Below, piece after piece: positions 8,647 through 45,013 of a stretch of DNA of 64,000 nucleotides (within the stretch, counting starts at the first letter, position 1; every line of letters starts with the position of its first letter). A program made the translations under genes and the position numbers. The DNA comes from Escherichia phage vB_EcoM_Skers. The notes beneath the pieces are model-generated. The model did not search any database. It was given only the letters and a program-made list of their open reading frames with translations, and was not told the origin of the DNA. Location of the stretch: sequence record MW748999.1. The stretch is one strand, 5' to 3'.

Positions 8647-11600
8647 TTAAAGCGCCTAGTGTAACTAGCTTGACAATAGAAAAATTGTCTGCTAATCAGG
8701 CGTATATCACATGGGATGACGTAGGCGAAAACTTCTTTTATTTTGTGGAGTTAGCCGAAACCAGAACACGAGACGGGGAGATCATCCCCGTCGATGAGTT
8801 AAGCTGGGTAAACCTGGGATATACTGCCGAACAAAACTGGTTTGAGGATAAAAACCTTTTTCCAGAATATTATTACAAGTTTCGTGTAGCAGTAGCCGCA
8901 GAAGGATTTGAACAAAGTAAATGGGTTGAAACAGAAGAGTTTCAGACATTTAAAACAAACGCATATAATTTTTCTATGATGCGAGAGTTCAACCTTGCAA
9001 ATGAGTTTATAAAGGAAAAATTTACATACGATAATCGAGAGTATGTCAAGTTTAATACCGACCTTATTCAAGCATCATTGATGAAGGAAGATTTTGTCTT
9101 TAGTCCTGAATATGCAAACATGACAAATATCTCAAACTACATTGTAGTTGATGAGAACTTTCATGAAATACAGGATCACATAGAAAAAGTTTGTACTGAT
9201 ATAAACCGCACTATGTTAGCGGAAATGAACGGTGTTTTGTACCTTTTCGAACGGTTCCAGCCGATCGTGAAAGTGTCAAATGATAAAGGTCAATCATGGA
9301 AAGCATACAAGGCTTTTAATGATCGTGTCGGCAATCCGGTTTCCCGTACATGCGTTTATCAGTCTAAGACTACTACTTACGTTTTAGGATATGACCGTAT
9401 CTTTTACGGACGACAAGCGAGCGATACTCGATGGAGCGCGGATGATGTTCGATTTAGTGATGATACGATCACTTTTGCAAAGGTTGGTGACGAAAACGAC
9501 TTAGGGTTTGACGTTGAGGTCTTTGGTGTATTTTCCAGATTAACAGGTGATACCACAAAATACGCCGAAGCTATGGCGTGCAGTGATGACTATTTGTGGG
9601 TTGGTGCTAAAGATGTTATTCGCCGGATTCGTCTTAAGAATACTCCAGTTGATACCGTACAGGGTTCGCCTACGTTTGGCGAAAAAATATTCGATCCTGA
9701 TGTTATCCGAGTAACAGGAAATGATAAAGCTGTCATTCAGAAAATGGATGTTATCGACGGTAAATTGCTTGTATTTGTTACGGGTGAAGTTAAACAGCGT
9801 TATCAAGATCCGACTAAACCTGAAAACGTTGTCCCATCAGACGATGCGGGTGTATACTTAATTGGGAGTGATGGCCTGTCTTTTCAGCGTGTATTTGGTA
9901 ATACTCCGCAAGAAAGAGAATATATTCAGCACGGATTTAGTAATATGTCAACAAACGGTGATGAGGTGTTCATAAGCCATTATAATCATCACTTCGAAAG
10001 CATTTTACCAGATCCAGAAACTGCCGCGAAATATGAATTGGGCGAAGCTGTAAAATATTCTCAGGAGCCAACTTATCTAACTGATAAGAAAATACATCAA
10101 ACTACTTTCAGAGCAAGTTATGATGATTTGCGTGTTTGGGAGTTAGGACCGCAAGCGTATTATAATGAGGCCGACTATACATGGATGCGTCGAAATGGTG
10201 TTCGTGTGTGGATCACAAATGATAATCGCCCGTTGGTTGTTTATCCAGAGGTTATCTATACTCAAGAAGTTGATACATCTGGCATTCTTGACCAAAATAG
10301 GGTTAACCGAGAAGTTTATGATAAAGGGACCGTGACCTGTTATCTTAACAATGTTAAATTTGAAGGATTCAAACAATATGCATCCGGTGTAATGTTCCAT
10401 AAAAACACAGGAGAGATCATAGGATTCTATCAATTTAACTATCGCGTTCGTGATCAGGTTGGTGTATATTGGAAACCTACAAATGTAGCATTTGTTGCTG
10501 AATTGCAAAATCAGGTTCGAGAGGTTCCCTGGGTTCCGGTTCACTACGATCGAGAGCAAGATCCAGATTTGCGGCCTTTACTGAATAAGATGACCCCTGA
10601 TAGCTTTTTACTTGAGAACGAAAATTTCAGAAAATTCTCTGAATATTATCTGCAATTCTTAAGCGATGGTTCAGGAACATATTATAATAAACTAAAAAAT
10701 CTGATTAAAAACAAATATCCACGCGAGAAAGATGCATATGAGTATCTTTGGTCAGAGATGAACAAACGAAACATCTATGCAGATAAAAACAAGCGAGATG
10801 CGGTAGTAAGATTCTTTGAATCCCGCAAATCAGATTTTTATTCCACTAAGGGCGTGGAGGCTTCTTATAAGTTCTTGTTTAAGTTACTTTATAATGAAGA
10901 TGTGGAAATTGAGGTTGAATCACAAGCCGGACTAGAGTATGATATTGTTGTTAGTTCAACGAACATTGACGAGGATATCGTAGGTCGCACGATTTATACT
11001 CCAACCGGACGGGCTAACGTGACGTATCTTGAAAGGGAATATGAAGGTGGTCGCCTACGCTGGCGAGTAACCATTCATAACCTGATCGGGCGGTTCGAAG
11101 AAGGACAAGTGATCAAATCAGAGAAAACAGCGTTTGAAGGGATGATCCTTGTTGGTGTACGTGGTAAAGAGTTGTTGAGTAGTTCAATCGACTATATCAA
11201 CCGCTCACGAAGCCAATACACCATGAAGATTAAAAGTGCATTGCCAGTTTCGCGCTATGCAAATGATGTAATGCGATTCGTTCATCCTGTCGGCTTTGGG
11301 TTTATCGGTGTTACCCTGCTTACGATGTTCATTAACAGCGGGTTGAGCATGAAGCACACCGAGACGATAATTCAATCTCTGAAAAATTATAAGTTTGACA
11401 GCGGATTTCCTAGCGTGTATCCTGATCGGGTGGCAGACCTTGACGTTGACGGAAACATTAAGAAAGACCCGCTTACCGGAAAAGCATTATATTTGACTTC
11501 ACCTTTAATCGGTGATGAATTTCCGGTTCCTCCTGAATATGATCAGGAGAACAGCGAATTGTTCCACGGACTTAAAGCAAGCGAACGAAGATTTGCAATG

Positions 11601-37388: not shown

Positions 37389-38446
37389 TGAAAATTAGTG
37401 TTATCAATGATGCCGTTGATAGCTTTAAAGCGGGGGTTAAAACCTCCGCTGGTTTTACCTCAAAAAATAAAGGGAAAACATTAACCGCTCAATTCCCCGC
37501 TGAACGTGCTAGCGGTAATGATGCTAGCGGTTATTATATCAACGACTTATATAATAATGGTCTGTTATTCACTGCATACGATTACACATCTCGTACTACT
37601 GGATCGTTGCGTGATTTCAGGAAAAAGAAAAATGTTGCTAGCGGTTTTGGTGGTAGCGTTAATATCGCTGGTTTTGATTTAAATTTGGGTGGGAGAAATG
37701 CTGCATTTGACCGAGAGGCAATTGCTAATATTCTTCTTCCTCGTAGTCAATCTGACGTTGACGCTGCCAGCCATAAGTTTAATGATGTTGGTGAATCTGT
37801 TATTTCTCGCGGCGGTGGTACTTTAGGCGGTGCTCTTTCTAATATGGCATCTACGGCCGTTTTTGGTGGTATCGAAAGTATTACTGGTGGATACCTTGCC
37901 GATCACGGTGAACAGATTTATAATACTGCGCGAAGCATGTATGCGGGTGCTGACGCACGAACGAAAAACTACGTATGGCATCTAACCCCACGTAGTATTG
38001 AAGACCTTCGCAATATTCTGATCATATACGAAACGTTTTTAGAGTTGTCTTATGGTTCTAGTGGTATTTCCAGCACCGCAAAAGAATTAAAAGCGGAAGT
38101 TGATGCGTGGTATAAAAATACACTATTGAGCAAATCCACTCCAGCCGAGGCAAAGAGAAATGATACGCTGTTTGAAGGGATCACCGATTTTCTATCAAAC
38201 GTAATTACTGTATCTAACCCGACAATATGGATGATATCTAACTTCGGTAAGCGTACATCGTTTGAAGGGCGTAGCGATGCATTTGGTCCCGCTCAGATCT
38301 CAAGTGTACGTCTGGACAAGTCGCCTGATGGTAAGTTTAATGGCCTTGCTATTTCTCCTAACTTGCCGAGTACCTTTGTTCTGGAAGTATCATTTAGAGA
38401 GATCTTGACACTTTCCCGTGGTACTATATTTGGGAGTGCGGCATAA
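37388..38446 (+). CDS. 48: gp48 baseplate tail-tube cap
   Basis: 352 aa (T4 gp48 364 aa); conserved position. Confidence 0.85.
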   Translation: MKISVINDAVDSFKAGVKTSAGFTSKNKGKTLTAQFPAERASGNDASGYYINDLYNNGLLFTAYDYTSRTTGSLRDFRKKKNVASGFGGSVNIAGFDLNLGGRNAAFDREAIANILLPRSQSDVDAASHKFNDVGESVISRGGGTLGGALSNMASTAVFGGIESITGGYLADHGEQIYNTARSMYAGADARTKNYVWHLTPRSIEDLRNILIIYETFLELSYGSSGISSTAKELKAEVDAWYKNTLLSKSTPAEAKRNDTLFEGITDFLSNVITVSNPTIWMISNFGKRTSFEGRSDAFGPAQISSVRLDKSPDGKFNGLAISPNLPSTFVLEVSFREILTLSRGTIFGSAA

Positions 38447-39378
38447 TGTTTGATTTAAATGACTTTAACGAACAAGCCGCTAACCTTGACTTTCAGCGAT
38501 CGAACTTATTCAGTGTGGCATTTGCCACCACTCCAAGTAATAAGACACAAGCGATCCTAGAAAGTATGGGCGGTGCGGTATATGATATTATACCAAATGC
38601 ATTAAATGACTATTTCGGGATTACTCGTGGTGATTATACTGACGCATTAACAAATCTTGCTGTACAGGGTGTTAGGCGTGCTGTTGATTCATCCGGTGTC
38701 AAAAAGTATCTTTTAGGTGCAATGTCATCCCGCGTAGTTCAATCTCTTCTGGGGCAATTTGATGTTGGTACATATGCGCTTGACTGGTTCAATATGGCAT
38801 ATAAGACAAGCGGTCTTCTGGTGTATGCTGTTAAGGTTCCAGAAAACAGATTGAATTATGAAATGGACCGTAACCACAATGCGCCGAACATTCGAATTAC
38901 CGGACGTGATTTTGATCCGCTTGTATTGAGCTTTAGAATGGACTCTAGCGCATCAAACTATAGAGCAATGCAGGATTGGGTTAACTCAGTAGAAGACCCC
39001 GTTACAGGGCTTCGTGCGCTTCCTGTTGACGTTGAAGCAGATATTCAGGTCAACTTACATAACCGAATGGGAGTTCCTCACACGATCATGATGTTTAATG
39101 GTTGTGTTCCTGTTGGTGTGAGTGCACCGGAATTAAACTATGAAAACAACAACGAAATCACAACATTCGATGTTACTTTCGCATATCGTTCTATGCAAAC
39201 TGGTGCTGTAGGAGAGCAAGCCGCGCGAGAATGGATTGAGGATAAGGCAATAAACGCAATAACAAACACTTTCGGCAATAATTTACTTGATAGTGGGTTA
39301 TCTGCTGCTGGTAATGCTTTATCGCGTCTAAATGGCGTTGGTGGGCGTGTGGTGAATACTGTCACTAACTGGTTCTGA
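38446..39378 (+). CDS. 54: gp54 baseplate tail-tube initiator
   Basis: 310 aa (T4 gp54 320 aa); tube-like C-terminal domain. Confidence 0.85.
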   Translation: MFDLNDFNEQAANLDFQRSNLFSVAFATTPSNKTQAILESMGGAVYDIIPNALNDYFGITRGDYTDALTNLAVQGVRRAVDSSGVKKYLLGAMSSRVVQSLLGQFDVGTYALDWFNMAYKTSGLLVYAVKVPENRLNYEMDRNHNAPNIRITGRDFDPLVLSFRMDSSASNYRAMQDWVNSVEDPVTGLRALPVDVEADIQVNLHNRMGVPHTIMMFNGCVPVGVSAPELNYENNNEITTFDVTFAYRSMQTGAVGEQAAREWIEDKAINAITNTFGNNLLDSGLSAAGNALSRLNGVGGRVVNTVTNWF

Positions 39379-39385
39379 TAAGCGA

Positions 39386-39416
39386 AAGGCGGGGATTATC
39401 CCCCGCCTTTTTATTT
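39386..39416 (+). terminator. strong rho-independent terminator after gene 54
   Basis: stem GGCGGGGAT/ATCCCCCGCC followed by TTTTTATTTT. Confidence 0.75.
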
Positions 39417-39899
39417 TGCTAAATCATTGCAATATTTTAGTGCCTTAGTTTGAAATTCTGCGCTGTTAAGTTCTTCATAACGGTCATAATCACCGTTTAA
39501 TGCTGCCTTTCTTGCTTCTTGCTCTATCTGCATGTCAGACATGATAATACAGCGATCCCGTGCTTTCATCTTCTCAAGTTGTATAGACTCTTCTTTCTGT
39601 TTGCGCAATTCTTCTTGACGCTTCTTTTCTTCTCGTGCTTTCTCTTCCCGCGCTTCTTTGATTGCATCCTTGAACATCTGCGTTTGTGGTGCTAAACCAA
39701 CTTTAACGCGATCCACGTCTCGACGTTCCATTTTAGAAATAAAGCATGATTCGATCTGACCATCACTTGCATATGCTGCTTTACATTCACGAAGCAAGAA
39801 AACCGGATCTGATTTAGCCTTCATCATAGCTTCCATGTTAGCACAACCATTAAGCATAGCCACTAAAGCCGCAAGACCAATTAGTTTAATCATTTTCAT
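39411..39899 (-). CDS. putative lipoprotein (162 aa) with signal peptide and lipobox
   Basis: N-terminus MKMIKLIGLAALVAMLNGC (lipobox L-N-G-C); Lys/Glu-rich helical middle; start overlaps stop of the upstream ADP-ribosyltransferase gene. Confidence 0.55.
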   Translation of the reverse strand: MKMIKLIGLAALVAMLNGCANMEAMMKAKSDPVFLLRECKAAYASDGQIESCFISKMERRDVDRVKVGLAPQTQMFKDAIKEAREEKAREEKKRQEELRKQKEESIQLEKMKARDRCIIMSDMQIEQEARKAALNGDYDRYEELNSAEFQTKALKYCNDLAK

Positions 39900-40720
39900 T
39901 TAGTCACCTCACCGAAAATTGTAAATTGTCTACGATTCTCATCGCCGAAAGATTCTACTACGTCGTTTACCTTGACGCAAGTCCCGCGCGGTAAAATTAC
40001 TTCACATTCGCAAGGATTCCATGCAATCGACCCAACAACAAAACCTTTATGATCTTTTACGTCAATTACCCATGATACATTACAAGAATGTTGCATCTTT
40101 CCGGTCATCGATTCATATCGATTCTCACAATAAAGGCTAGTGCTATTTGAAAGCCAGCCTCCAAAGATGATTGGTGTCATGCTGGTTGATACAAAGTTTT
40201 TAAAGGTAAATTCCTTATCTTCAATAATACGCTCTATTGTTTGAATGTCAAGATGTTGACCACGATAAAGAGTACCGTTTAACTTTTCGGTTTTATCCAT
40301 GACGCAATCCATCAAATCAACAATTTCGGATATCTCGTCGGTCATGTCTTCTTCCCCTAAGAGAGCACCATTTACCCATTCGTATTGTTCAGACACATAA
40401 TCACAGATTGCATTATATTCTGCTGGGGTTATGTTGTTATGTTTGTAATGTTTGAATACATTATCTCCAAAATCTTCGGAGTGTACTTCATACATCACAT
40501 TAATGATTTTCTTGATAAATCCATAATCTTGTGTCTCACGCTCAAGGAAGCGGATAACCTTCACATAATCATCAAAGTTAATCTGATCACTGATCATCTC
40601 AGTGATCATGTAACCATTAATCCCCTCAATGTCATATGTTTCGATGTAATTATCCATACGTTCCATCATTGATTCGCGTGATTCTTCTGAAAGACGAAAA
40701 TCCTGTAATTTCTTGAACAT
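39896..40720 (-). CDS. second ADP-ribosyltransferase (Alt/Mod-like paralog, 274 aa)
   Basis: R-S-E triad in order: TLYRGQ (Arg), FVSTSM (STS), CECEVILPRG (catalytic Glu), matching the same motifs in the adjacent full-length Alt. Confidence 0.7.
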   Translation of the reverse strand: MFKKLQDFRLSEESRESMMERMDNYIETYDIEGINGYMITEMISDQINFDDYVKVIRFLERETQDYGFIKKIINVMYEVHSEDFGDNVFKHYKHNNITPAEYNAICDYVSEQYEWVNGALLGEEDMTDEISEIVDLMDCVMDKTEKLNGTLYRGQHLDIQTIERIIEDKEFTFKNFVSTSMTPIIFGGWLSNSTSLYCENRYESMTGKMQHSCNVSWVIDVKDHKGFVVGSIAWNPCECEVILPRGTCVKVNDVVESFGDENRRQFTIFGEVTK

Positions 40721-40797
40721 TTTAAACCTCCCATATAACAGAAAACGGGGCTAGTATAAAACTAGTCCCCGTTTGAGTCAACCATTATTTCTTAAAA
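40721..40797 (-). promoter_or_regulatory. early promoter with embedded terminator hairpin (PeSL-like cassette) between alt and the ART paralog
   Basis: minus-strand reading TTGACT - 17 nt - TATACT; the spacer/-10 region forms hairpin CGGGGACTAGT/ACTAGCCCCG followed by TTTTCTG; GGGAGG SD before ATG. Confidence 0.6.
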
Positions 40798-42849
40798 TTA
40801 CATTTTAAATTTATCTGGCATTGCGTCTACAGATACCAGATCAGCGATAAGCTGACGTAGAGTTGCCTTATCTGCTTTCTTACGTTCGGTTTTAGCTTCG
40901 GTAATAAAGCTGGAGAAAGACAGGTCAGAAGCAGGTTTAATAACACCTTCACGGATGAATGCATCACCGTCAGCGATCATCTCGCCAGATTCTTGTAATG
41001 CTGCCAGTTCATTTTTGTTCATAATATGTGCCTCAATGTAATAAGTTTCTTGTGAATCCGTCGATGCCGTAGCACGAGTTACCGTATCAAAGGATAGCAC
41101 AACACCGCGAGGAAGTAAAATCTCGCATTCTTTGTAAGCAAATGCTTTGTTACCTACTGGCAATACAGGGATGTTTTCCGCGCCAGCAATGGAGAAAGCA
41201 ACATTAGCGCCACCTTCACCGCGAGAGCCAGCCATAGAATCAACACCAGCAACGGCACTAGCCACGTTTGCATTCCAGCCGCCAAAAATGTTAGGTGCAA
41301 GGGAAGTGCTCACATAGTTTTTAAAGTAAAACGCTTTTTGCTTACGTGCAGTTTCCCACATTTGCGAACGGAAGTCCATACCACGATACAGAATAGTACC
41401 CGGATCAAGTTTAACGCCATAGTTAGAGAAGGCATTATCCAGTGCATCGCACATCTTGACCAATTCTTCTGGATCTGCGATGCCGTCAAACTCTTCCAGC
41501 TTACGGTCGGTTAGGAAGTTGTTCATATTGATGTATGCTGCATCGGCATATTCGCTCAACACAAAACCTTCCGCGCCCGGCAGATCAAGATCAATATCTG
41601 CCATCATTTCACCCATGTTGCTAGCAATTGCTTCAAACATACCGGAAGCAACATTACGTAGGGCATCGGTTTTAATCTGTGTGATGTGACTACGCAACAT
41701 TTCAGCTTTTACATCTGCTGGCATAGACTGGTCTACTCGATCCATTGCTATGGCAGTGATCTTGTTTTCGAATACGTCCTCGCTCATGATTTCTTTTAAG
41801 CGTTTGATTGATGCTGCGATAACTTCCGCAGACAACGGATCATATTGATCCTGAACTTTTACCAGTTCGCTTACTGCGTATTTTGCATCGGCTTCGCTTT
41901 CAAAAATAGTACGCATGAAACCATAGCGAGTGATAATATCACTTGTCCAGTCATTCAGAGAACGAGCGGTTGAACGTTCTAAGGCTTGACGATCAATCAG
42001 AGTATTAAACTGTTTCTTAGGTTCTGCTTCGGTGATATCTTCTTCCGGTTTAAGATTAATTTTTTCTGGATGATTCACATAGTCGCTGTTATAGGTCGCT
42101 TGAGTTTTCAGCATTTCTTCTTTAGTCAAACGAGATTTAGCCGCTACGCGTTGTTCTGCTTCCGCGTTTCGTTCTTCTTCTGACACAAGACTAGCCGCAT
42201 ATGCCTCATCTTTAGTCAGAGATTCACCAGTAGCCTTAGATACCCAGCGATCACCTAAATCACTTTCTACTTTAGTGAACAAGGATTCATCAAGTTTAAT
42301 CCCTTTAATCTTATCAATCGCCATCCCGCGACGCTTGACAACAACTAAAGCGATCTTTTTGCTGGTCATTACTTCCTGCTGGAATACTTCAAACTTCGGT
42401 GTACGACGCACCAAACGCTCTATAACGCGCTTAACCAGTTCGGTCTTACCCTTCATACGGGATACGTTAAAACGGAACATAACAGCGTCTAATTGCGCTT
42501 TACGGGCTGTTTCCATAACCACATCAAAAGCACTTGCCATAACTGCAATCGGGTTATCGCCTAGACCATTTTTAAGCTGTACAATACGACCGCTTTTGTT
42601 CATTTCGCACAGTACAACATGTGCGGTCTTGTCACCCATACGAATGATTTTAGGTGTTTTGTTGGTGAAGTTACAAAGACGGACAATCACATCTTTATCG
42701 CGTGTCTGTACTGCAAAAAGCTGTTTAGGATTCTGCTTAGGCTTTAAGCACTGTACCGGAGCAATACTGCCAAAGTTTTCTTCCTCTTCCGTCAACAGCC
42801 ATTTCTCGAAAGATTCAATCATTAGATCGTCGATTTCTAAGTTAAACAT
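40798..42849 (-). CDS. alt: Alt ADP-ribosyltransferase (injected head protein)
   Basis: 683 aa (T4 Alt 682 aa); C-terminal ART motifs ILYRGM, YVSTSL, KECEILLPRG; located after gene 54 as in T4. Confidence 0.85.
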   Translation of the reverse strand: MFNLEIDDLMIESFEKWLLTEEEENFGSIAPVQCLKPKQNPKQLFAVQTRDKDVIVRLCNFTNKTPKIIRMGDKTAHVVLCEMNKSGRIVQLKNGLGDNPIAVMASAFDVVMETARKAQLDAVMFRFNVSRMKGKTELVKRVIERLVRRTPKFEVFQQEVMTSKKIALVVVKRRGMAIDKIKGIKLDESLFTKVESDLGDRWVSKATGESLTKDEAYAASLVSEEERNAEAEQRVAAKSRLTKEEMLKTQATYNSDYVNHPEKINLKPEEDITEAEPKKQFNTLIDRQALERSTARSLNDWTSDIITRYGFMRTIFESEADAKYAVSELVKVQDQYDPLSAEVIAASIKRLKEIMSEDVFENKITAIAMDRVDQSMPADVKAEMLRSHITQIKTDALRNVASGMFEAIASNMGEMMADIDLDLPGAEGFVLSEYADAAYINMNNFLTDRKLEEFDGIADPEELVKMCDALDNAFSNYGVKLDPGTILYRGMDFRSQMWETARKQKAFYFKNYVSTSLAPNIFGGWNANVASAVAGVDSMAGSRGEGGANVAFSIAGAENIPVLPVGNKAFAYKECEILLPRGVVLSFDTVTRATASTDSQETYYIEAHIMNKNELAALQESGEMIADGDAFIREGVIKPASDLSFSSFITEAKTERKKADKATLRQLIADLVSVDAMPDKFKM

Positions 42850-42884
42850 TTTATATCCTCTAGTTGATAACCTATAAACCTATA

Positions 42885-42910
42885 TTTATGAAAAAGGGGC
42901 TTAACGCCCC
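42885..42910 (-). terminator. rho-independent terminator upstream of alt (ends the early small-gene transcripts)
   Basis: minus-strand reading GGGGCGTTAAGCCCC followed by TTTTTC; a CATAAATA late-promoter-like octamer lies just downstream. Confidence 0.65.
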
Positions 42911-42915
42911 ATTTA

Positions 42916-43128
42916 TTATAATGCACCATCGAGCAATTGCTCTAAGGTGTATCCTGAATAGTCTTTTTCAATCAGGATATATTTTCCTACTCGTTTAATA
43001 CAACCACGCATTTCAACGTATTCTGCGTAGTTGATGGTACGAGTTGTTCCATCTTCCAGTAATGCAGTACCGATTTCGTTAATGCGGTCATAAGTTACGT
43101 CGGTAATGATGATTTCGATGTTAGCCAT
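42916..43128 (-). CDS. hypothetical protein (70 aa)
   Basis: ORF track; preceded by PeSL-like promoter cassette. Confidence 0.5.
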   Translation of the reverse strand: MANIEIIITDVTYDRINEIGTALLEDGTTRTINYAEYVEMRGCIKRVGKYILIEKDYSGYTLEQLLDGAL

Positions 43129-43199
43129 TTGATACTCCTTAGTAGTTCGTTTCGGTATGGGTGTATTATGATATACACCCTCTGTTATGTCAACAACTT
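43129..43199 (-). promoter_or_regulatory. PeSL-like early promoter cassette
   Basis: minus-strand TTGACA - 17 nt - CATAAT; hairpin GGGTGTAT/ATACACCC around -10; leader ends AAGGAGTATCAA-ATG. Confidence 0.6.
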
Positions 43200-43447: not shown

Positions 43448-44002
43448 TTAGTTATTTTTTAATTGCTCATCTTGCAATAGGGCAATCACATGCTGGCGAT
43501 GCTCTTCCGATTGAGGCACACCGAAAAAGTTTGTTTTGTAGAAATACTCTAATCGGTCTTCTCGTGTGCTCTCTTCCATCATGATCGCTGGTAGTCCGAG
43601 ATTTCGGAAACGTCGCTTTTCTGCTGGAGTAAAATCACTGTAATACAACATAGAATCATCATTACCAGCAATGCTAAACTCATCCTTCATAAAGGAGAAT
43701 ATTGCGTTTAAACGCTGTTTACCGTCCACGATTTCGATCTCATAGCGAGAGCCATCATCAATCTTAGCCATTGCGATAGCACCAACCGGAAAATCATTAA
43801 TAAGGTTTTCGATAAACATACGTTTGTTTTCTGTGTCCCATACTAAAGGACGCTGATAATCTGGGTTCATGTTGATATAGCCATCTTCTAACCATGCATC
43901 ATAAACAGAGATGACAAAGTTTTTAGTATTGGTATAGTAACGGCGTTTAGGCGTTAAACGGTTCATGTTATAGTCTCCTGAATGGATCATCACGTAAATC
44001 AA
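43448..44002 (-). CDS. DUF262 / ParB-Srx-superfamily protein (DGxQR motif)
   Basis: motifs PDYQRPLVWDTENKRMFIENLINDFPVG and IVDGKQRLNAI match the DUF262/ParB-like N-terminal domain pattern; true start may be an internal Met near 43966. Confidence 0.6.
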   Translation of the reverse strand: MIYVMIHSGDYNMNRLTPKRRYYTNTKNFVISVYDAWLEDGYINMNPDYQRPLVWDTENKRMFIENLINDFPVGAIAMAKIDDGSRYEIEIVDGKQRLNAIFSFMKDEFSIAGNDDSMLYYSDFTPAEKRRFRNLGLPAIMMEESTREDRLEYFYKTNFFGVPQSEEHRQHVIALLQDEQLKNN

Positions 44003-44300
44003 TATCTTTTAAGAACTCCTCCCATGAATGGCGGATATTGTTCTTAATTCTCCAGATAAGAGCAGGGATTGAACGCTCTCCCATCTGGAAGTATGGATCA
44101 TATGATCCATATGCCCAATATGCTACTACAATTCCACAATCAGCGCAATAATATTCTATTTCACTTGCTGGCGACCAAAGTCCATCAATATGATCGGTGA
44201 TCTTGCTTTCGATGTTATGGCTATGACAATCAGGGCAACGGATGCAATGACCTTGTTTATCGTAATTTGACGTTAGAGAATACTTAAACAATCTCATCAT
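43968..44300 (-). CDS. hypothetical zinc-ribbon protein (110 aa)
   Basis: two CxxC pairs (CIRCPDC ... CADCG); co-oriented and overlapping neighbours. Confidence 0.5.
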   Translation of the reverse strand: MMRLFKYSLTSNYDKQGHCIRCPDCHSHNIESKITDHIDGLWSPASEIEYYCADCGIVVAYWAYGSYDPYFQMGERSIPALIWRIKNNIRHSWEEFLKDIDLRDDPFRRL

Positions 44301-45013
44301 AGATCCTTATTTGCTTCAAATACTGCCTTTGCGAATCCTCGCGGGGTAAGTGACCTTATAGTCTTTGTTTTCGTTCCTTTCCCGCCTAGCTTAGAATGCT
44401 GTTTACTGTACCCTTTATTAATCTGCAAAGGTTTCTTTTCTGGCATTATAAAGCCTTGTCCGGTCCATAAGCAAGTCTTTTTCGGGTACATATCACGGGC
44501 GGCAATATACTCAGGAAACGTAGGATGCTTATCATCTTCCGGCAAATAACCGCCATATTCCCACGGATGGAACATATAATCAGGCTTACGCCACATGCTA
44601 GAGATAACGCTTACAGGATTCTCTATCATGTAGGGAACTCCTAGCCATTCACCCAAATACGCGGTTATTTTGGCTGCCCTTACATCATGAACTTGAATCA
44701 ATGGTCCTTGTTCTCGTTTCTTTCGTTCAAAGTGCGCAGCGCCACTAACAGCTAAATTGGTGCACGGTGGGAATGCAAAGATAATATCCGGTTTCCCCCA
44801 TTCAAGGTCCATTGCTCTTTCCAGCCAGTTCAAATCAATCCAGGTGTTTACATAGGTAATGTTTGGATGTTCAAATCGGGTATTATACTTTTTGTATGTG
44901 CCGTGGTCGGCGTCATCCGCATTAAAGCAGACTACCTTATGACCTGCTTTAGCCCATTCTAGCCCCATTATCCCCGATCCGTCAAAGTTGCAGAATATTA
45001 ATTTTTGTTTCAT
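44297..45013 (-). CDS. truncated DNA C5-cytosine methyltransferase-like protein (238 aa; motifs I, IV, VI only)
   Basis: FCNFDGSG (motif I F-x-G-x-G-like), FPPCTNLAVSGA (motif IV Pro-Cys), MIENP (motif VI ENV-like); no recognisable target-recognition domain or motifs VIII-X. Confidence 0.55.
   Translation of the reverse strand: MKQKLIFCNFDGSGIMGLEWAKAGHKVVCFNADDADHGTYKKYNTRFEHPNITYVNTWIDLNWLERAMDLEWGKPDIIFAFPPCTNLAVSGAAHFERKKREQGPLIQVHDVRAAKITAYLGEWLGVPYMIENPVSVISSMWRKPDYMFHPWEYGGYLPEDDKHPTFPEYIAARDMYPKKTCLWTGQGFIMPEKKPLQINKGYSKQHSKLGGKGTKTKTIRSLTPRGFAKAVFEANKDL

Follow-up and report, generated by a model that had tools for sequence, protein, structure and literature searches.

A short Alt-type ADP-ribosyltransferase and an exchangeable gene for a predicted lipoprotein at the alt locus of Krischvirus phages

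We analysed a stretch of 64,000 nucleotides from Escherichia phage vB_EcoM_Skers (MW748999.1), hereafter the window, and within it a pair of overlapping genes next to alt. The gene order is of the T4 type: gp29, gp48 and gp54 follow one another on the plus strand, while alt, an open reading frame (ORF) of 274 residues and an ORF of 162 residues converge on them from the minus strand. The 274-residue ORF encodes a stand-alone ADP-ribosyltransferase (ART), referred to below as the short ART, and the 162-residue ORF encodes a predicted lipoprotein, below simply the lipoprotein. The full-length alt gene is the upstream neighbour of the short ART and its distant paralogue, and the hairpin that separates the lipoprotein gene from gp54 is annotated as a terminator on both strands in GEC-3S. 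Homologues of the locus were collected by megablast with window positions 39300-42900, which returned 58 phage records that match along the whole query (95-99% identity). Every one of them is a Krischvirus (RB49, Phi1, JSE, GEC-3S, W115 and others), and identity of the window to RB49, Phi1 and GEC-3S is about 98%. The features of the locus are listed in Table 1.

Table 1. Features of the alt locus in the window
Feature	Position	Strand	Basis
gp54 baseplate tail-tube initiator, convergent late gene, locus boundary	38446..39378	+	annotations in related genomes
Bidirectional intrinsic terminator between lipoprotein gene and gp54	39384..39411	both	11-bp stem, 7 GC pairs; -19.2 kcal/mol, z -3.4
Hypervariable lipoprotein gene, 162 aa	39411..39899	-	PHROG 16112 (function unknown)
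Signal peptide and lipobox L16-N-G-C19	39843..39899	-	sequence
ATGA, short ART stop TGA overlapping lipoprotein ATG	39896..39899	-	sequence
Short Alt-type ADP-ribosyltransferase, 274 aa (= RB49ORF183c)	39896..40720	-	Pfam, PHROG, BLASTP, alignment, AlphaFold model
Promoter-early stem-loop (PeSL) cassette	40743..40781	-	promoter scan, fold, conservation
Full-length alt, 683 aa, N-terminal Alt-specific region and C-terminal ART domain	40798..42849	-	PHROG 802 E 2e-179; PF03496 E 3e-9
ATAAATA, late-promoter-like core, 33 nt 5' of alt ATG, just after terminator 42896..42910	42883..42889	-	read from sequence

The short ART matches the Pfam family PF03496 (ADPrib_exo_Tox) over residues 82-266 (E 4e-16; 59.4 bits against a cut-off of 23.4) and PHROG 15144, 'ADP-ribosyltransferase', from end to end (E 5e-198). 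It is composed of a helical N-terminal part (residues 1-142) and a catalytic core (residues 146-272). The complete R-S-E triad that the first-pass annotation had read in this protein is present: R153 lies in the LYRGQ motif (codon 40262..40264), the STS motif is formed by S178-T179-S180 (40181..40189), and E238-C-E240 lies in CECEV (40001..40009). We aligned 61 Alt-type sequences, drawn from a representative library of 1.84 billion proteins, and the sole invariant columns are Y108, R153, S178, E238 and E240. Thus, the catalytic residues withstand careful alignment. No signal peptide is found, and a Shine-Dalgarno sequence (GGGAGG, 40727..40732 on the minus strand) lies 6 nt before the start codon.

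The AlphaFold2 model built on this alignment reached a predicted local distance difference test score (pLDDT) of 93.7 and a predicted template-modelling score (pTM) of 0.90. When it was compared with the PDB by Foldseek, the best matches were the arginine-specific toxin Vis, C3 exoenzymes, Certhrax, CDTa and iota-Ia (E 5e-11 to 1e-9; Vis 4xzk, E 4.8e-11; C3bot2 1r45, E 8.6e-11). The fold and the catalytic motifs are common to the short ART and these bacterial C2/C3-like toxins, with template-modelling scores to the target of about 0.6, but sequence identity is only 15-20%. As compared to the toxins, the short ART has an extra N-terminal helical extension, which it has in common with Alt, and it lacks a secretion or translocation component and would act within the phage's own host cell. 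By profile, catalytic residues and ART fold, the short ART is a member of the R-S-E clade. The E-x-E motif is the signature of arginine-specific R-S-E ARTs (C2/iota/Vis-type enzymes), and from this motif only we infer that the short ART is arginine-specific.

The catalytic module is homologous to that of T4 Alt (Alt/VIP2, R-S-E clade, PHROG 802), with the same R, S-T-S and E-x-E elements and at the same locus. BLASTP aligned the short ART with residues 413-593 of T4 Alt (31% identity over 181 aa, E 1e-23) and with the neighbouring Alt (37% over 109 aa, E 1e-16), and the PHROG 802 Alt profile placed residues 8-268 on Alt positions 330-602 (E 2e-45). The alignment starts at about Alt 330, in agreement with the first-pass observation that the long Alt N-terminal region is missing. 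That region, of about 330 residues, corresponds to PF26846 (Tevenvirinae_ADPRT) in related Alts. In precomputed Pfam assignments for related contigs, the short ART orthologues carry PF03496 only, whereas the Alts next to them carry both PF26846 and PF03496. The C-terminal tail of Alt, of about 75 residues and ending in P-x-KF-x, is absent as well, since the short ART stops about 75 residues earlier. As compared to T4 Alt, the short ART is therefore shortened at both ends; it also has its own sigma-70 promoter and is presumably not packaged. Judged by these alignments, the short ART is an Alt paralogue in which the catalytic module (approximately Alt residues 330-600) is kept as a separate gene.

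In the alignments, the short ART is only 23-25% identical to its own neighbour Alt and no closer to it than to other Alts, which indicates that the duplication of alt is old. A recent tandem duplication of the neighbouring alt was rejected for the same reason. Duplications at this place have been noted before: Nolan et al. (2006) attributed RB49ORF183c, 44RRORF188c and T4 alt.-1/alt.-2 to paralogous duplication of the alt gene beside them (PMC1524935), and RefSeq labels the short ART 'ADP-ribosyltransferase' in RB49, Phi1, JSE, GEC-3S, ECD7 and KFS-EC. The gene is thus already annotated and in the literature, and the second ART is not the novelty that it had seemed on first reading. A literature search found no functional account of Krischvirus ARTs or lipoproteins. 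The T4 annotation traces alt.-1/alt.-2 to an old duplication that took in the 5' part of alt. Elsewhere in T-even phages the alt locus also expands and decays (L025 4183..6248; L023 1201..7461; L024 3433..7682). In the Tequatrovirus-like contig L025, a second alt copy is divided between an N-terminal ORF of 273 aa and an ART ORF of 415 aa, while tandem full-length alt genes are found in fDHCT2 (three) and Citrobacter phage Ursula (two).

In outline the short ART resembles T4 ModA and ModB, which are likewise small (200-270 aa), stand-alone R-S-E ARTs, and like them it is putatively made after infection. ModA modifies R265 of the RNA polymerase (RNAP) alpha subunit, and ModB has RNAylation activity. 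The first-pass annotation had raised orthology to ModA or ModB as an objection, which did not materialise. Neither BLASTP comparison was significant (E 0.41 against T4 ModA, 1.2 against ModB), and the short ART lies at a different locus, not downstream of srd. In RB49 the position downstream of srd is taken by another gene, the modB-like RB49p014 (167 aa; 8917..9420 of the RB49 genome, L016), whose product resembles T4 ModB (E 8e-11) more than ModA (E 2e-6). We therefore reject ModA/ModB orthology. RB49 has this single Mod-type ART at the place of the T4 modA-modB pair. Krischviruses, like T4, have three ARTs, but in another mix: Alt, one Mod-type enzyme and the short Alt-type enzyme.

A promoter scan placed a promoter for the short ART directly after alt, with a -35 hexamer TTGACT (40776..40781), a 17-nt spacer and a -10 hexamer TATACT (40753..40758), and the authors of the GEC-3S record annotated the same promoter independently. 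A hairpin (40743..40774; -20.6 kcal/mol, z -4.1) fills the spacer and overlaps the -10 hexamer. Its stem-loop reads AAACGGGG-A-CTAGT / ACTAG-CCCCGTTT and is followed by a T-rich tract. The early-type promoter interleaved with a hairpin, which the first-pass annotation had singled out, is thus in place, but as an element it is of a published type. Arbiol et al. (2010) described 'promoter-early stem-loops' (PeSLs) in RB49 and phi1 as intergenic cassettes of five parts, namely an AT-rich region with an upstream stop codon, a strong sigma-70-type promoter, a stem-loop (typically GGGG...CCCC, mostly between -35 and -10 or overlapping -10), a Shine-Dalgarno sequence and a start codon (PMC2839356). 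PeSLs of phi1 and RB49 showed strong promoter and terminator activity in reporter fusions (PMC2839356). In the window, the alt stop codon TAA (40798..40800), an AT-rich segment (40782..40797), the GGGG..CCCC stem, GGGAGG and the ATG follow in this order. Going by this anatomy, the element at 40743..40800 is a PeSL that matches the published description point by point, and it would belong to the commonest subclass described for RB49, phi1 and other T4-like phages (PMC2839356; Comeau et al. 2014, PMC4122927).

The window cassette borders a conserved locus, and different lineages have retained the cassette as well. The -35 hexamer, the -10 hexamer and the stem are invariant or compensated in six loci, though the relatives' proteins are only 41-48% identical. 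Stem positions pair in 96% of the cells of this six-locus alignment, as compared to 33-55% when the partner columns are slid, and two pairs carry compensatory double changes (C-G to A-U and U-A to C-G). As only about three independent lineages are represented, the conservation of the stem is supportive but not conclusive. In the distant metagenomic contig L028, a stem (-22.9 kcal/mol, z -4.9) that differs entirely in sequence occupies the same place, between TTGACA and TAGAAT. The short ART keeps a promoter and a Shine-Dalgarno sequence of its own across deep divergence. Conservation and compensatory changes thus support promoter and terminator function of 40743..40781. A late promoter driving the short ART was rejected, as no TATAAATA was found on the minus strand within the locus.

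The short ART is present in all 58 Krischvirus genomes at 96.7-99.6% amino acid identity and in the same place, between alt and gp54. The orthologues of RB49ORF183c in Phi1, JSE, GEC-3S and W115 (PHROG 15144) are thus the same gene at the same position, and the only difference is the neighbouring lipoprotein, which in the window joins an LNGC signal peptide to a type-A mature part. Against three relatives, the ratio of non-synonymous to synonymous substitution rates (dN/dS) of the short ART is 0.01-0.08. Given this ratio and the identity of at least 96.7% across 58 isolates, the gene is clearly maintained, and purifying selection on it is strong. Its length is kept at 264-288 aa in all lineages. 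In metagenomic relatives, the short ART is 41-48% identical where gp48 and gp54 are 74-82% identical, and in an uncultured lineage it is about 31% identical where gp48 is 78%. The latter lineage, which is Krischvirus-related, is represented by two metagenomic contigs of 168-169 kb (L028 and L029, 2958..6301; gp54 72%) and has 0 representatives among 50,697 isolate phage records. Its gene order is Alt, a 264-aa short ART and a 169-aa lipoprotein homologue, with the same 4-nt overlap.

The lipoprotein gene and its putative lipobox LNGC lie where the first-pass annotation had placed them, and homologues have been named accordingly by others ('putative lipoprotein' in W115, where LipoP was used, and 'Lipoprotein' in the UniProt entry of KFS-EC). 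The N-terminus, MKMIKLIGLAALVAMLNGC, is composed of a basic start (MKMIK), a hydrophobic segment (LIGLAALVAM) and the lipobox. Against the lipobox consensus [LVI][ASTVI][GAS]C, the Asn at position -2 is atypical, whereas other alleles have the canonical L-T-G-C, and G18 and C19 are invariant in 23 sequences. At position +2 every allele has Ala, Thr, Val or Ser, and none has Asp. In the Lol system of E. coli, Asp at +2 causes retention in the inner membrane, and sorting of the lipoprotein to the outer membrane is therefore predicted. All members of the family have, in addition to the lipobox Gly-Cys, four further cysteines (C39, C52, C117 and C157) and a G-[DN]-Y motif, and the predicted lipoprotein is probably disulfide-bonded. 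In the AlphaFold2 model (pLDDT 84), the mature part consists of helices only, the central one being long (residues 73-134). The family comprises 48 clusters among 5.8 billion proteins, and every member whose context was examined occupies the same slot after the short ART.

Searches of Pfam, NCBIfam, PDB sequence profiles, PDB folds and BFVD folds returned 0 matches outside the lipoprotein's own family, and the NCBIfam search returned 0 for all three proteins of the locus. The possibility that it is a homologue of T4 Alt.-3, the product encoded in the corresponding slot of T4, was rejected, because the two do not align and Alt.-3 has no signal peptide. Phage lipoproteins that act in superinfection exclusion or receptor masking include T5 Llp and T1/phi80 Cor. 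By analogy with these, the window protein would also be a small phage lipoprotein that is made from an early promoter and differs strongly from one related phage to the next. However, the Pfam, PDB-sequence, PDB-fold and BFVD-fold searches gave no homology or fold match to the Llp/Cor type, and no receptor-binding gene adjoins it.

In 50 of the 58 isolates, the lipoprotein is 91-96% identical to that of the window. In the other eight it is only 28-33% identical, although the adjoining short ART is 97-99.6% identical. The same is seen at loci L008, L021 and L022, where the flanks (Alt, short ART and gp54) are 96-100% identical and the lipoprotein 30-35%. DNA identity holds through the signal-peptide codons and breaks immediately after the codon of the lipobox cysteine. 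The signal-peptide variants (LNGC or LTGC) and the mature-domain classes are reassorted in differing combinations, and that of the window, LNGC with a type-A mature part, is absent from the 58 isolates (identity at most 96.3%). At least three deeply divergent mature-domain classes, 27-38% identical, stand between flanks of 96-100% (L005-L008, L012, L020-L022). The swaps are bounded by the signal-peptide coding region and the downstream terminator, not by the PeSL.

Synonymous divergence (dS) also points to a boundary. Between the window and L017, dS is 1.04 for the lipoprotein gene and 0.80-0.93 for gp54 and gp48, as compared to 0.21-0.24 for the short ART and alt; against L019, the short ART and alt give 0.12-0.23. 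The lipoprotein gene thus resembles gp54 and gp48 and not the short ART and alt, indicating a recombination junction between the short ART and lipoprotein genes. The gene-wide dN/dS of the lipoprotein gene is 0.10-0.39, with no excess of replacements, and positive selection was rejected on this basis. The deep divergence of the lipoprotein stems from allele exchange, its dS matching that of the gp54 side. We also rejected a receptor-masking model, as the allele class shows no association with the type of the gp38 adhesin: divergent alleles occur with RB49-type gp38 in AV108, PTE-Eco09 and Whisky and with the other type in JK32, 011D4, E26 and PHB13 (3 versus 4), and the common alleles are split about 10 versus 10. 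The hypervariable lipoprotein slot is the sole mildly new point at this locus.

The stop codon of the short ART overlaps the start codon of the lipoprotein gene, as had been noted on first reading, and a Shine-Dalgarno sequence for the latter (GAGGTG) lies within the 3' end of the short ART gene. The same ATGA overlap occurs in L005-L008, L012, L017-L020, L022 and L028. To see how unusual it is, overlaps were counted by hand over the first 50 kb of RB49, which gave 90 pairs of neighbouring genes. Overlaps are found in 31 of the 90 (34%), and 12 (about 13%) are of exactly 4 nt. The first-pass annotation had taken the pairing of an ART with an exported lipoprotein as a possible pointer to a target other than RNAP. 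This suggestion is not supported, given that 4-nt overlaps are routine, the two products would belong to different compartments and the lipoprotein gene recombines independently. We conclude that the short ART and the lipoprotein are most likely co-transcribed neighbours and not a functional pair; their pairing is most simply explained by compact operon organisation.

Taken as a whole, we consider it likely that the short ART is a functional, arginine-specific, early cytoplasmic ART of the Alt type, expressed from a PeSL, and that the lipoprotein gene is co-transcribed with it and functionally separate. Host sigma-70 RNAP would start at the PeSL promoter immediately after infection. Because the -10 hexamer ends at 40753, the transcription start is expected near 40746, inside the 3' arm of the hairpin. 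A transcript that begins in the 3' arm lacks the 5' arm, would be unable to form the terminator stem and would read on, whereas alt transcripts would carry the whole hairpin and stop there. The PeSL transcript would then cover the short ART and the lipoprotein gene and end at the bidirectional terminator.

As the short ART lacks both the N-terminal region and the C-terminal tail of Alt, it would not be loaded into the phage head. It would stay in the cytoplasm, use NAD+ and ADP-ribosylate arginines on host proteins. The E-x-E motif and the Alt ancestry suggest that the likeliest targets are of the Alt/ModA/ModB kind, namely the RNAP alpha subunit and translation factors. Given that one Mod-type gene stands in place of the two of T4, the short ART may fill the role of the missing, ModA-like early ART. 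The lipoprotein would be translated by coupled or Shine-Dalgarno-driven initiation, exported, lipidated and sent to the outer membrane. In the least supported step, it would probably take part in a conflict at the level of the envelope, such as superinfection exclusion, a role in cell-envelope conflicts being one that an exchangeable-allele slot would fit. The short ART gene is genuine and its product probably active, yet it is ordinary for the Krischvirus group.

Several points weigh against this reading. Early timing depends on the promoter motif, and promoter-like matches are not enriched in the region (12 seen versus 10.0 +/- 3.2 expected). The PeSLs assayed with reporters (PMC2839356) are others than that at 40743..40781. 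The absence of the Alt N-terminus makes packaging of the short ART no more than unlikely. The short ART diverges fast between lineages, with identities of 31-48% where gp48 is at 78-82%, and its target could therefore differ from those of the T4 enzymes. Finally, the adjacency of the ART and lipoprotein genes and their 4-nt overlap are kept in every relative examined, including L028/L029, where the short ART is about 31% and the lipoprotein about 24% identical, so that a functional link keeps a small probability.

On a more novel reading, which we regard as unlikely, the conserved early operon of PeSL, short ART and lipoprotein could be a host-conflict module acting in two compartments. The short ART would have a lineage-specific target other than RNAP alpha, for instance a defence or toxin protein, and the lipoproteins would be a new, exchangeable family serving exclusion or counter-defence at the envelope, with alleles passed among Krischviruses that infect the same cell.

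Quite improbable, in our view, is that the short ART is a counter-defence enzyme that inactivates a host immunity or toxin protein and does not reprogramme transcription or translation. ART models for such a role are Alt, reported to act on MazF, and AcrIF11, reported to act on Cas8f. Host-conflict genes typically diverge fast between lineages, as the short ART does, and it is also under strong purifying selection within Krischvirus, which belongs to the same pattern; the early cassette lies beside a hypervariable gene and near a phage gene for a GmrSD_N/DUF262 protein. Phage ARTs have been described as fast-evolving conflict proteins (PMC9503650), and ART-type anti-CRISPRs exist (PMC12421852). 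However, the closest characterised relatives, Alt and, functionally, ModA and ModB, act mainly on RNAP and the translation apparatus, and the gene is nearly invariant within Krischvirus, as would be expected for a conserved housekeeping target more than for a variable defence target.

That the short ART and the lipoprotein form one functional unit, whether as partner, target, localiser or immunity factor or in a joint attack on or protection of an envelope-associated host system, appears distinctly improbable; the pairing would then be meaningful, as was suspected on first reading. The order Alt, short ART, lipoprotein and convergent gp54 is found in 58/58 isolate genomes and in every metagenomic relative seen; the 4-nt overlap persists even at the low identities of L028/L029; and the lipoprotein family is found only in this slot among the members whose context was examined. 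On the other hand, gene order in T4-like phages is in general highly conserved (PMC1524935) and overlaps are routine, and all of the ART-lipoprotein occurrences belong to one phage lineage, so that their co-occurrence is not phylogenetically independent. The short ART has no signal peptide and would use cytoplasmic NAD+, whereas the lipoprotein is predicted to be exported. Moreover, lipoprotein alleles of about 30% identity adjoin short ARTs of 96-100% identity, while a tightly interacting pair should co-vary, and a recombination junction lies between the two genes.

The remaining alternative, that the ORF is a decaying remnant of an alt duplicate with no enzymatic role, draws on the proneness of the locus to duplication and fragmentation (T4 alt.-1/alt.-2, the split copy in L025, fDHCT2), but it is barely credible in view of the low dN/dS, the invariant catalytic residues, the confident model of a complete ART fold, the promoter, Shine-Dalgarno sequence and length retained across deep divergence, and the count of 0 frameshifts or stop codons in 58 genomes.

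Upstream of alt, the ATAAATA core hints weakly that the packaged Alt may be transcribed from a late promoter, unlike the short ART with its sigma-70 promoter. RB49 late promoters accept either A or T as their first base (PMC1524935), and such a promoter would fit late synthesis of packaged Alt; the 7-mer is only suggestive, as it is common in AT-rich DNA. The terminator immediately upstream of it (42896..42910, minus strand) consists of GGGGC..GCCCC and a T-run. A second PeSL-like unit lies at 43159..43193 on the minus strand (TTGACA-17-CATAAT, 11/12 consensus positions), with its -10 hexamer inside a GGGTGTAT/ATACACCC hairpin, upstream of a 70-aa ORF (42916..43128). The early region just upstream of the alt locus encodes the GmrSD_N/DUF262 protein (PF03235, E 6e-20; 43448..44002, minus strand), a domain found at the N-terminus of enzymes of a type IV restriction family; in the related genomes the annotated protein is shorter (172 aa). 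In a 238-aa ORF (44297..45013, minus strand), FAFPPCTNLAVSGA resembles motif IV of DNA C5-cytosine methyltransferases; a Pfam search with this ORF gave 0 matches at E <= 0.01.

These results leave current understanding unchanged, since papers and databases had covered both the gene and the promoter cassette before. Viral ADP-ribosylation has T4 as its model, a phage that injects one enzyme (Alt) and makes two others early (ModA and ModB). If the short ART takes the role of ModA in Krischviruses, one member of the enzyme superfamily would have been replaced by another, non-orthologous one, and biochemists would also gain a small Alt-type enzyme that is convenient to work with. The lipoprotein slot, lying in otherwise near-identical coliphages of the therapeutic type, is a candidate for a factor that shapes how these phages interact with other phages or with the host at the envelope.

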